From a bacterium (lineage in GTDB: Bacteria > JACRDZ01 > JAQUKH01), in the NCBI GenBank assembly GCA_028719205.1, contig JAQUKH010000021.1:1-48168 (forward strand): a DNA stretch of 48,168 nt, in the 5' to 3' direction. Every line of letters starts with the position of its first letter. Position 1 is the first letter of the stretch. The position numbers and the translations under genes are program-made. This document shows, in pieces, positions 1-2,351 of the stretch. The notes under the pieces are model-generated. The model was not told where the DNA came from and made no database searches. It worked only from the letters and a program-made list of their open reading frames with translations.

Positions 1-146
1 TTGAATGATCCGGATGGCTGTCAGCCGATATTGCTATAAATACCACATTTTCATTGCATAAATCTTCTATCTTTCTGGAACTGGTTATTCCTCTTGAATA
101 GGCTAGCAATACTATCTTTAACAATATAGTTTTTAAAGCGGGCCAT
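1..146 (-). pseudogene. IS1182-family transposase N-terminus with internal deletion and frameshift
   Basis: ATG at 146 gives MARFKNY. A different frame continues ILLKIVLLAYSRGITSSRKIEDLCNENVVFIAISADSHPDHS, the DUF772/InsH-N-like 'SSRxIE...PDHS' motif. The intervening segment appears to be missing. Confidence 0.75.
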
Positions 147-252
147 TTAAATACTTTCTCCTTTCAGTTATAATATAATATTTACATTATACCTGATATT
201 TTAATCAAAAGAAAGTATTTATTAGGGGAAAATGGGGTTTTTCGACAGCTTC
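1..252 (-). mobile_element. IS1182-family-like insertion sequence, left end plus decayed transposase (runs off window)
   Basis: Minus strand begins GAAGCTGTCGAAAAACCCC at 252, an IS1182-like terminal repeat. It is followed by RBS AAGGAG and transposase-like coding sequence. Confidence 0.65.
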
Positions 253-308
253 AACCTGAAAACTCAGGCGTCGCCATAGGCGGGTCGCCTGTAGTGCAAT
301 TGTTAAAA
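249..308 (-). other. integron attC site (60 bp)
   Basis: Minus strand: TTTTAAC-aattgc-ACTACAGGCG...CGCCTGAGT-tttcag-GTTGAAG. It has AAC/GTT ends and paired L arms with one extra base on the 5' arm. Confidence 0.85.
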
Positions 309-310
309 TC

Positions 311-385
311 TTAATTTATAATTTCAAATGAATTGACCATTCTTGTAATATGGTTCACTAGTAATAGTTTTAAATTATTTTCCAT
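311..385 (-). CDS. 24-aa mini-ORF filling a very short gene cassette (MENNLKLLLVNHITRMVNSFEIIN); possibly a deleted remnant
   Basis: ATG lies just after the core site GTTAAAA and TAA just before the inverse core TTTTAAC. No RBS is visible. Confidence 0.35.
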   Translation of the reverse strand: MENNLKLLLVNHITRMVNSFEIIN

Positions 386-561
386 TTTTAACAGCGAGTT
401 GAGCGTATTTACGGCCGGGTGGTGCGCCGAAGGCGAACCAAGGCTGACGGAAATTGCGCTCGAACGATTTGTTCGGGCGCGCGAATCAGCGCGCGGTCGG
501 ACTAATCGGGCGAATGCGTACGCGCAACTCGCTGTTCGGGCGCGCGCAGCGCGGCCGGACG
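384..561 (-). repeat. geneless cassette with long GC-rich attC-like site, copy 2 (attC-like part 386-540)
   Basis: Direct repeat of 1965-2142 with 5 substitutions. Outer inverted arms are AACAGCGAGTTG(A/C)GCGTA. The 27-bp body is GTCCGGCCGCGCTGCGCGCGCCCGAAC. Confidence 0.8.
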
Positions 562-612
562 TCGAAACTCACTGGCGGGCTACTGCCCGTCCAGTGCATT
601 GAAATGTTGGGA
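554..612 (-). other. integron attC site (59 bp); core reads GTC rather than GTT
   Basis: Minus strand: TCCCAAC-atttc-AATGCACTGGACGGGC-agta-GCCCGCCAGTGAGT-ttcgac-GTCCGGC, immediately after the toxin stop codon. Confidence 0.85.
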
Positions 613-620
613 ATCTTAAT

Positions 621-917
621 TTATTTTATATAATTTTTTAATTCCATTGCGCCGTGAAAGACACCAAGAATATCTATTCTCTGCGAGTCAGCAATTAAGT
701 AAGCAATTCTATAATGTGTATAGTATATTACTCTCACATTTTCTTTGTCTATAGCCTGGTATATCCCGCCAATTTCAGGGAATAATTTTAATATTTGTGC
801 TTTTTCACGTATTTTTGTCACGACATTTTTTGCTGCTCTGGGATTGTCCAGTGCGATGTAATCATGGATGTTCTTTAGACAGGATTTTGCTTCATCGGTC
901 CAATTCAATTTTACCAT
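621..917 (-). CDS. type II toxin, RelE/ParE family
   Basis: 'KLNWTDEAKSCLKNIHDYIALDNPRAA...LKLFPEIG...YRIAY...IDILGVFHGA' is the ParE/RelE pattern. It overlaps the upstream small acidic gene. Confidence 0.9.
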   Translation of the reverse strand: MVKLNWTDEAKSCLKNIHDYIALDNPRAAKNVVTKIREKAQILKLFPEIGGIYQAIDKENVRVIYYTHYRIAYLIADSQRIDILGVFHGAMELKNYIK

Positions 918-1090
918 TTTTCAATTTCTCTACCTAAATCTTCATCGGATGTAATTTTATTTAATTGAGAATCTCTTATTCCTCTTTCAACCATACGTTT
1001 AAATAATAATTCCTTTATAAGTTCATCGTATGAAACATCATCAGGCAGGTCATCTATGATTTTTTTTGCATTATCTTTTATTGATAACAT
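911..1090 (-). CDS. putative antitoxin partner of the RelE/ParE toxin (59 aa)
   Basis: RBS AAGGAG precedes ATG at 1090 (MLSIKDNAKKIIDDLPDDVSYDEL...VERGIRD...EIEKW). It overlaps the toxin start, and an extended -10-like TGTGGTAAAAT lies upstream. Confidence 0.8.
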   Translation of the reverse strand: MLSIKDNAKKIIDDLPDDVSYDELIKELLFKRMVERGIRDSQLNKITSDEDLGREIEKW

Positions 1091-1143
1091 ATTTAACTCC
1101 TTTCTTATCAAATACACTCCTATTTTACCACATAATAGCAAAA

Positions 1144-1563
1144 TTATTTTTGAAAATCTTTTTCATTACAAGATGTTTCAATTACCGAATTAATTAACCA
1201 TTTAAACCAACCATGAGAAATCTTTAAAATATATTCTAGTTTACCACCAGCTCTTACAGACATATTATCTGTTTTTATGAATTGGACATCAAAAGGCAAT
1301 TCCCCTTCATGAACAAGTTCACATCTAAACCATTTATAAAAGATATGTGGAATTGTTTGTAATTCTCCTCTAAATTCAACCTTCAGTACTCCTCGCCATT
1401 TTTTATCCAGTAAATTTTCAAAACATTCACGGTCCCTTGAATTGTCAGGGTATTCACGGCGGGCAGTTGCAGCAACAGCAATAAGAGCATTCAAAAATGC
1501 GCCTTCATATCTTTCGTTCTGATAAAGTAACAAAGCATCTTCAATTCTTGCACGTATACTCAT
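1144..1563 (-). CDS. cassette-borne hypothetical protein with HEPN-like RxxxxH motif (RCELVH)
   Basis: First gene after the core site GTTGGGC. It is predicted helical and contains 'FRCELVHEG'. Confidence 0.7.
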   Translation of the reverse strand: MSIRARIEDALLLYQNERYEGAFLNALIAVAATARREYPDNSRDRECFENLLDKKWRGVLKVEFRGELQTIPHIFYKWFRCELVHEGELPFDVQFIKTDNMSVRAGGKLEYILKISHGWFKWLINSVIETSCNEKDFQK

Positions 1564-1574
1564 TATTATTCCTT

Positions 1575-1635
1575 GCCCAACGGCAAAAGGTCAGCCGCGC
1601 CGTATTCGGCGTCGGCTGCAACGCAATTGTTAAAA
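1575..1635 (-). other. integron attC site (61 bp)
   Basis: Minus strand: TTTTAAC-aattgc-GTTGCAGCCGACGCCG-aata-CGGCGCGGCTGACC-ttttgcc-GTTGGGC. Confidence 0.85.
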
Positions 1636-1646
1636 TCCGAATTATT

Positions 1647-1940
1647 TTAATTATTTGAATTGTTTGTATATTTTTCAATAAATTTATAGAATTTAATTTT
1701 ATTATCAAATATAAAAAATAACAATAATAATATCAATACAGAAAATGATACATTATTCTTTGTACCAAAAAATGATTGGATTATACTTCCAATTAAAATT
1801 ATCCAAGTTACTATCCCAATTATTTTTCTGATATTTTCCAGTTTATGTATTGTATTTTTACGAGCTTCGGCATTTAATGCATTATAAACAAATTCTTCGT
1901 CATCATTCTTTAAATTAAATATGTTTTTAAAACTATGCAT
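1647..1940 (-). CDS. cassette-borne small membrane protein (two predicted TM helices)
   Basis: RBS AGGAGG is present. The gene is bounded by GTTAAAA and TTTTAAC and has two hydrophobic segments. Confidence 0.75.
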   Translation of the reverse strand: MHSFKNIFNLKNDDEEFVYNALNAEARKNTIHKLENIRKIIGIVTWIILIGSIIQSFFGTKNNVSFSVLILLLLFFIFDNKIKFYKFIEKYTNNSNN

Positions 1941-1964
1941 AGAGACCCCTCCTATATTATTTCT

Positions 1965-2142
1965 ATTTTTAACAGCGAGTTGAGCGTATTTACGGCCGGG
2001 TGGTGCGCCGAAGGCGAACCAAGGCTGACGGAAATTGCGCTCGAACGATTTGTTCGGACGCGCGAATCAGCGCGCGGTCGGACTAATCGGGCGAGTGCAT
2101 ACGCACAACTCGCTGTTCGGGCGCGCGCAGCGCGGCCGAACG
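1965..2142 (-). repeat. geneless cassette with long GC-rich attC-like site, copy 1 (attC-like part 1967-2121)
   Basis: Direct repeat of 384-561 at offset 1581. The body is GTTCGGCCGCGCTGCGCGCGCCCGAAC. Confidence 0.8.
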
Positions 2143-2160
2143 ATTAATATACGAACTTCC
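2135..2160 (-). other. candidate attI-like site at the head of the cassette array
   Basis: Minus strand GGAAGTTCGTATATTAATCGTTCGGC: a GTT core with no attC palindrome upstream, followed by AT-rich non-coding DNA. Confidence 0.4.
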
Positions 2161-2351
2161 TATTTATCCTAAATTCCAACAACAAAAATATGCTTTATTG
2201 GTAAATTATGATGCTTTTTGCAATATTTTTGCTTTTTATTTCGTAAAAGGTCTGTAATACCATAAAATATGAACTTCGTAAAATATGGTTTTTTATACTT
2301 TTACATGATATTAAACAAAAAGAGACCGAATTATATTTAAAACATCCAGAC

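Follow-up and report, generated by a model that had tools for sequence, protein, structure and literature searches.

A recurrent gene-less integron cassette that carries an antisense copy of its own attC and may travel as a selfish passenger of the integron integrase

Whether the non-coding cassettes of integrons are selfish or useful has been a question since at least 2006, when paralogous non-coding Vibrio cassettes were described with the suggestion that they are selfish or regulatory (Boucher et al. 2006, PMC1382264). These cassettes lack an ORF, are conserved over their whole length and occur in many copies per array; the available portions of that report place them only within vibrios and mention no self-complementary layout. 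The gene-less cassettes of Vibrionaceae (PMC11014356) and Treponema (PMC6557892) are presented, in the sections consulted, as promoter-bearing units of several hundred base pairs (matched controls 450-650 bp) with a classical attC at the 3' end. Canonical attC sites such as VCR, aadA7 and oxa2 combine conserved boxes, a bulge in L'', an unpaired spacer and a variable terminal structure (excerpts of PMC2727003 and PMC5027507), and cassettes can become fused through attC loss (PMC8876359, in part). Here we describe a 168-bp unit that is a real, recurrent element and a new variant among gene-less cassettes. It shares its lack of an ORF, whole-length conservation and copy number per array with the Vibrio paralogous cassettes as far as those are described in the portions cited, but almost all of it is recombination site and it crosses phyla. 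It shares the 3' attC with the promoter-bearing cassettes as excerpted, but its body is only ~80 bp, GC-rich, without a sigma-70 consensus and runs antisense to the attC that it carries. The literature searched, which covered few subscription papers, gave no description of a cassette that combines an attC with an antisense copy of it.

The window (the whole stretch of DNA that was analysed, 48,168 nucleotides) is contig C21 of a 2.6-Mb genome. A cassette array occupies bases 1-2350 on the minus strand, after an inositol monophosphatase gene, and comprises in order the element, a cassette with a 97-aa ORF, a cassette with a 139-aa ORF and a ParE toxin pair, the element again, a short cassette and an IS. 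The genome has a single integron integrase (IntI) above the family cut-off, on contig C35. The ~140 bp upstream of the first element are homologous to the attI beside that intI (68.5% over 143 nt, E 4e-7), so that copy 2, which ends at 2141, stands first behind an orphan attI, in agreement with the first array position proposed for one copy in the preliminary description. The features are as follows.

1973..2140, minus strand: gene-less cassette, copy 2, in the first array position
2115..2141, minus strand: cap 1 of copy 2, a 27-nt palindrome from the 5' G|TT to the outer AAC
2081..2117, minus strand: antisense arm of copy 2, the reverse complement of both inner-attC arms without the terminal structure
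2052..2083, minus strand: cap 2 of copy 2, a second palindrome that ends in the inner R''
1967..2058, minus strand: canonical inner attC of copy 2, 92 bp (R'' 2058-2052, L'' 2046-2039, L' 1985-1979, R' 1973-1967)
392..559, minus strand: gene-less cassette, copy 1, with the anatomy of copy 2 shifted by 1581 bp (inner attC 477-386)
2142..2278, minus strand: orphan attI and integrase-promoter region, homologous to the attI beside intI on C35, no adjoining intI
1571..1634, minus strand: ordinary attC after the 97-aa ORF cassette (ORF 1647-1940), with similar sites on C30
554..612, minus strand: ordinary attC of the cassette with the ParE toxin gene (621-917) and its upstream partner
246..308, minus strand: ordinary attC, its G|TT joined to the end of an IS whose DUF772 transposase runs off the contig

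The element is an integron cassette without a gene and measures 168 bp from one crossover point to the other. The repeat first noticed at 384-561 and 1965-2142 is real but was mis-parsed. Its 178-bp copies differ at exactly five positions, and they contain the 27-bp palindromic body, the diverged second palindrome and a 155-bp span that opens with the first AAC box and closes with the last core. The cassette proper runs from 2140 to 1973 and from 559 to 392, neighbouring bases having been wrongly included; the supposed mini AAC...GTT hairpin consists of R'', a 5-nt spacer and the start of L'' of a canonical 92-bp attC; and the stretch between the palindromes is an antisense copy of the attC arms that had been missed. 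In copy 2, 2117-2099 mirrors L'-spacer-R' and 2099-2081 mirrors R''-spacer-L''. The reported near-perfect pairing of the outer arms is borne out, with 18 of 19 positions paired in copy 2 and 17 of 19 paired in copy 1, and the reported lack of a spacer or extrahelical base is true of this outer stem but not of the inner site, which has an unpaired spacer and a bulged base (2043, within L'' of copy 2). Both copies do precede a GTTAAAA core, but this is merely the commonest core in the genome's arrays. The inner 92-bp site has the features of an integron-cassette attC (R'', L'', L', R', the bulged base and the unpaired spacer), and a generic whole-genome attC scan picked it out in both window copies with no L-box mismatches. 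The 5' core triplet of copy 1 is mutated at position 558, and the antisense 70-89 aa frames of the unit have no Pfam match.

An assembly artefact is an unlikely source of the repeat: three copies have distinct flanks (the third, at C30:28398-28569, differs from the window copies in its terminal structure), and relatives carry the unit. Reads across the copy junctions reach fewer than 31 letters per side, below the requirement of the tool used, and so are not proof of the assembly. Sites near-identical to the attC at 554..612 occur on C30, C43 and C12 without an element behind them. Furthermore, C43:11661-11721 is an empty-site analogue, in which an attC of the type upstream of copy 1 joins at G|TT to a cassette whose start matches that of the cassette behind copy 1.

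Searches beyond this genome place the element in a family. Among 40 relatives, five had matches at E <= 0.01, three of which are clear homologues in the window's own phylum. A genome scan returned 32 stretches, six of them chance, with carriers in Syntrophaceae, Smithellaceae, Syntrophales, Syntrophobacterales, Thermodesulfobacteriota, delta-proteobacteria and Hydrogenedentota, and a metagenome scan returned 96 stretches, about 18 of the matches listed being chance matches in ORFs. Many carriers are sediment and groundwater bacteria, and they span at least three lineages, across phyla. The 93 distinct matches include 72 complete copies (36 full, 26 of 105-106 bp, nine of 47-54 bp and one of 113 bp); the other 21 are cut, truncated or chance. 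All 72 end at G|TT, partly by the rule of classification, and most begin with G|TT, about 10 having a changed 5' triplet. An attC or attI lies upstream of all complete copies but three, whose upstream neighbour is ambiguous (L035, L079, L121), and the next cassettes behind full copies are nearly all different. One genome (G041) has 18 matches, and one array holds five copies or remnants of the element. The earlier suggestion of a selfish attC-only element fits a unit that is gene-less, bounded by G|TT, multi-copy and found among changing neighbours, and the unit probably spreads by parasitising the integron integrase.

The short forms stop at a direct repeat of 5-6 bases of the 3' end, which would fit deletion by slippage between direct repeats. 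The 105-bp form lacks L', yet it is about as common as the full form. We found no support for the idea that short forms are older relics: the 105-bp form is not more mutated than the full form, with a change in 14/25 vs 4/12 copies (p = 0.30). In three loci (L026, L073, L090) the same pair of 105-bp form and next cassette lies behind different upstream sites. Like the fused cassettes of PMC8876359, as far as these are described in the part consulted, the 105-bp and ~52-bp forms have lost most of their attC and at least some travel with the next cassette; unlike them, the upstream partner is gene-less and the remnants keep part of the outer stem. At a further locus (L222), a form consisting solely of cap 2 and the inner attC stands first at an attI. 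Other copies (L194, L196, L241:926) are truncated at the 5' end and start at an internal GTT or with cap 1 fused to cap 2, which may reflect slippage or IntI use of internal sites. At L195:1563-1652, a group II intron (RF00029) lies with its 3' end directly against the terminal structure of an element copy. Locus L005 has no Rfam intron match, and no transposase or maturase ORF was recognised in the unit, which gives no support to an attC-targeting group II intron or IS.

The preliminary description also entertained a MITE mimicking attC, a structured RNA and a regulatory cassette. We regard a non-coding RNA gene or a transposase-driven MITE as highly improbable, strong and conserved as the structure is and despite the RNA-producing ORF-less cassette known in Xanthomonas (PMC6557892, cited from an excerpt). 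Folding of both strands, as had been suggested, gave structures far better than shuffled sequences (z = -5.3 for the top strand and -7.7 for the bottom, with 0/200 shuffles reaching either), and it is the bottom strand that folds best, as in attC sites. The unit ends at IntI crossover points and not at terminal repeats, no copy was seen with a transposase-type target duplication, and the repeated arm is internal. It has no Rfam match, and sequence prediction gave no consensus for a promoter or a terminator within it: all 15 sigma-70-like sites lie elsewhere, although promoters of such cassettes are not predictable in silico according to the available part of PMC11014356. Copies lie in arrays, and no family member was found in the plasmids searched or, by the cap-1 pattern, in 124 genomes of the phylum of G021; viral contigs gave no sequence match and 69 motif matches, none of which passed a filter for a palindrome plus AAC. 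A search of sequencing runs returned a single strong DNA run, perhaps that of the source sample, and small shares elsewhere; one RNA run contained two short assembled contigs of relatives, and assembled contigs cannot show transcription.

Position within arrays bears on whether the unit serves its host. As a GC-rich hairpin block, it could damp transcription or translation from the array promoter, or stabilise toxin-gene arrays, and be kept by host selection. In an attI-based search, the class stands first in 6/23 scorable attI sites, compared with ORF-less first cassettes at 1/42 in marine integrons (PMC6557892, in part), and it is first at 3/3 attI of one family in G041; some first-position copies (L027, L032, L056, L110) have a mutated core. 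By a motif rule that misses a few, 17 of the 93 matches are attI-adjacent. Outside G041, however, first positions (4/21) do not differ from later junctions (2/11), in small numbers that rest on a heuristic attC finder with one likely false site left out, and enrichment at the first position was not demonstrated. The unit has no recognisable promoter or terminator consensus, the frequent decay to short forms argues against a fixed function, and most attI of that family lack an intact intI whichever cassette is first. A host-selected regulator is therefore distinctly unlikely. We also rejected the idea that the element is tied to integrase-less attI or aids attI movement: most sites of the attI-based search lack an intact intI with or without the element in first place, and the left junctions of orphan attI vary.

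The layout of the unit is kept beyond its sequence. An upstream antisense arm was found in 26 of 197 distinct attC-like sites, all of this class, and in none of the about 170 others; the count describes specificity and not frequency, because the set of loci was enriched for the family by its collection. In a 401-genome sample of G041's phylum, the cap-2 motif occurs in 40 genomes, and nine of the 30 loci returned are elements, the other 21 being chance; a reversed-pattern control gave zero despite these chance loci and was thus uninformative. Seven loci (L118, L202, L224, L252, L258, L259, L268) keep the caps but differ in their L boxes and spacers, and in each the antisense arm matches these, as judged by eye (folding covers family copies only); three of them (L202, L224, L259) have an AT-richer insert of 30-50 bp between the antisense arm and cap 2, possibly cargo or a promoter. 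The spacer before R', which is normally free, changes together with the arm in 4/26 copies of the first family and also in these seven relatives, and the bulge of the inner site is kept in all diverged variants read. Unrelated sequences with the same layout form a second family (L243:10132-10266, L227, L231), found in the window's own genus and in the phylum of G041; in L227 a change to AAT/ATT affects the outer and terminal triplets jointly and leaves the inner AAC intact. The layout recurs more loosely in L148, the first cassette at an intI, and L009:1330-1620, which are nested gene-less units with palindromic caps, perfectly paired outer arms and less canonical inner sites.

Template-switch correction is a mechanism that can keep inverted arms matching, and arm matching can arise in this way without selection. 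The unit might be a neutral by-product that arose when replication folded back at a palindrome within a very small, empty cassette, its match kept by template-switch repair and its numbers set by drift. The arm does lack the terminal hairpin, as if a polymerase had skipped it, and many copies have been deleted between short direct repeats. This origin nevertheless appears quite improbable given the recurrence of the layout in unrelated sequences (L243/L227, L148, L009), its restriction to this class among the attC-like sites surveyed and the high copy number.

We modelled two competing folds, at equilibrium and 37 C, without IntI, SSB or supercoiling. The outer fold, a rod, is both the minimum-energy fold and the alignment consensus, and the long, fully paired site of the preliminary description is the predicted dominant structure. 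Across 26 aligned full copies, the rod is 96.3% paired, and 6/44 pairs have two-sided changes, a figure matched by 0/500 shuffles, although these changes come from few lineages and the shuffle control ignores relatedness. The terminal stems covary strongly and are common to both folds. At the inner site of the same copies, 8/10 R and L pairs are kept in 26/26, one in 25 and one in 24, and 3/5 spacer positions never pair. The canonical fold of the inner attC has a median probability of 1e-2.1 alone, 1e-8.4 within the element and 1e-12.3 in the excised circle (29 copies, for three of which the site finder took the outer span), whereas the outer stem reaches a median of 0.97 in the circle (16/19 copies parsed). 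In the array, the upstream attC and the outer stem form jointly with a median of 1e-1.5, and the upstream attC and the inner site with 1e-11.2 (16/19). The models thus predict that the canonical inner site is masked while the outer stem of the rod dominates. The inner site resembles the canonical attC described in the excerpts cited above; unlike these, the unit has a second, fully paired and bulge-less R-spacer-L stem that is predicted to out-compete it, and which instead resembles engineered attC mutants with a paired spacer or no bulge.

We put at roughly 0.5 the reading that the unit is a selfish passenger of IntI, probably recombining through this pre-folded, fully paired outer stem. On excision, the bottom-strand circle would fold into a closed, hairpin-capped rod. 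DNA loops of the GNA type are stable. The rod would resemble the covalently closed linear molecules that are abortive products in PMC2727003, as given in the part available. The site cut by IntI would be the outer stem, comprising the AAC of cap 1 with the G|TT core and the next 8 bp, and in the array this stem and the attC of the upstream neighbour could form together, supplying the two sites that excision requires. The ancestral donor site would be the inner attC, and loss of the DNA between short direct repeats would account for the 105-bp and ~52-bp forms, in which 6-9 bp of the outer stem survive. Use of the outer stem is supported by L227, because its joint AAT/ATT change spares the inner AAC, and by the 105-bp form, which lacks L' but is abundant, young and retains part of the outer stem. 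Published mutants, as far as the excerpts go, are mixed: bottom-strand recombination did not change noticeably when aadA7 and oxa2 attC lost their bulged bases, and removal of all bulges from VCR2 lowered recombination 50-fold (PMC5027507), while pairing of the spacer lowered recombination 27-fold (PMC2727003). As spacer pairing and bulge removal lower recombination, the outer stem should be a poor site per fold; an always-folded substrate may offset this cost, so that the unit would often be excised and re-inserted. Against outer-stem use, the inner site keeps every canonical mark and the cap-2-only form stands first at an attI. The 105-bp copies that share a next cassette behind different sites are as expected of an immobile hitch-hiking remnant.

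These latter data could instead point to a cassette that locks itself: the inner attC would work, caught transiently by IntI, and after insertion the arm and cap 1 would hide the sites, so that the unit, and perhaps its neighbours too, resists excision. The inner site folds well alone and poorly in the element, its canonical pairs and unpaired spacer are kept, the cap-2-only form of L222 stands first at an attI, and sites of low folding probability excise poorly (PMC5371416, in part). An inner fold of about 1e-12 in the circle, however, leaves no easy way in, and wide, recent spread suits a mobile unit better than a locked one. A 1000-fold block of the upstream attC by cap 1 was rejected as mostly an artefact of truncated context, because the 3-log drop obtained with cap 1 on its own (38 sites) shrinks to about 1 log, or 10-fold, in full context (16 copies). 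We therefore think self-locking rather unlikely. Both this and outer-stem use make the unit a parasite.

Extended beyond this family, recombination through the outer stem leads to a tentative proposal that falls short of even odds: that integrons host widespread, undescribed DNA parasites in the form of gene-less cassettes whose single-stranded circles are hairpin-capped rods, with a fully paired site that has neither bulge nor open spacer and an arm re-templated upon changes of the attC, and which can make up about one fifth of the cassettes in some anaerobe arrays. If so, IntI would have a second, symmetric natural substrate and arrays would carry MITE-like cargo. If the outer stem works, it would be a natural exception to the requirement of attC for bulged bases and an open spacer. 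The unit is short enough to be made synthetically and its two alternative folds make opposite predictions, so the question is directly testable. Automated counting of attC in environmental integrons would also be prone to error where such nested sites and remnants occur.

Several further observations concern the arrays around the element. The ParE toxin pair at window 621-1141 recurs at C30:29936-30405 as the same pair in two arrays, and the pair on C21 is fused behind the 139-aa ORF without an attC between them. An IS with a DUF772 transposase is joined to the G|TT of an attC in several arrays (window 1-250, C35:1-420, C43:15500-17011, the end of L006 and upstream in L079), which suggests attC targeting. 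Elsewhere (C35:2300-3760, C43:11720-12570) a transposase gene interrupts an attC in opposite orientation at the same relative position, intact on C35 and deleted on C43; it resembles an attC-targeting element of the IS110/IS1111 type. Orphan attI and integrase-promoter regions that lack an intact intI are found at various positions in chromosomes and often retain a stub of the intI 5' end (window 2143-2351; L008; L027, L058, L073, L076, L078, L081, L086, L114, L118; L200-L224), and in one attI family across 401 genomes most members lack an intact intI, with up to three per genome. Outside the array, window positions 24800-46700 hold many CxxCH-type motif repeats in long ORFs, a multiheme cytochrome gene cluster.
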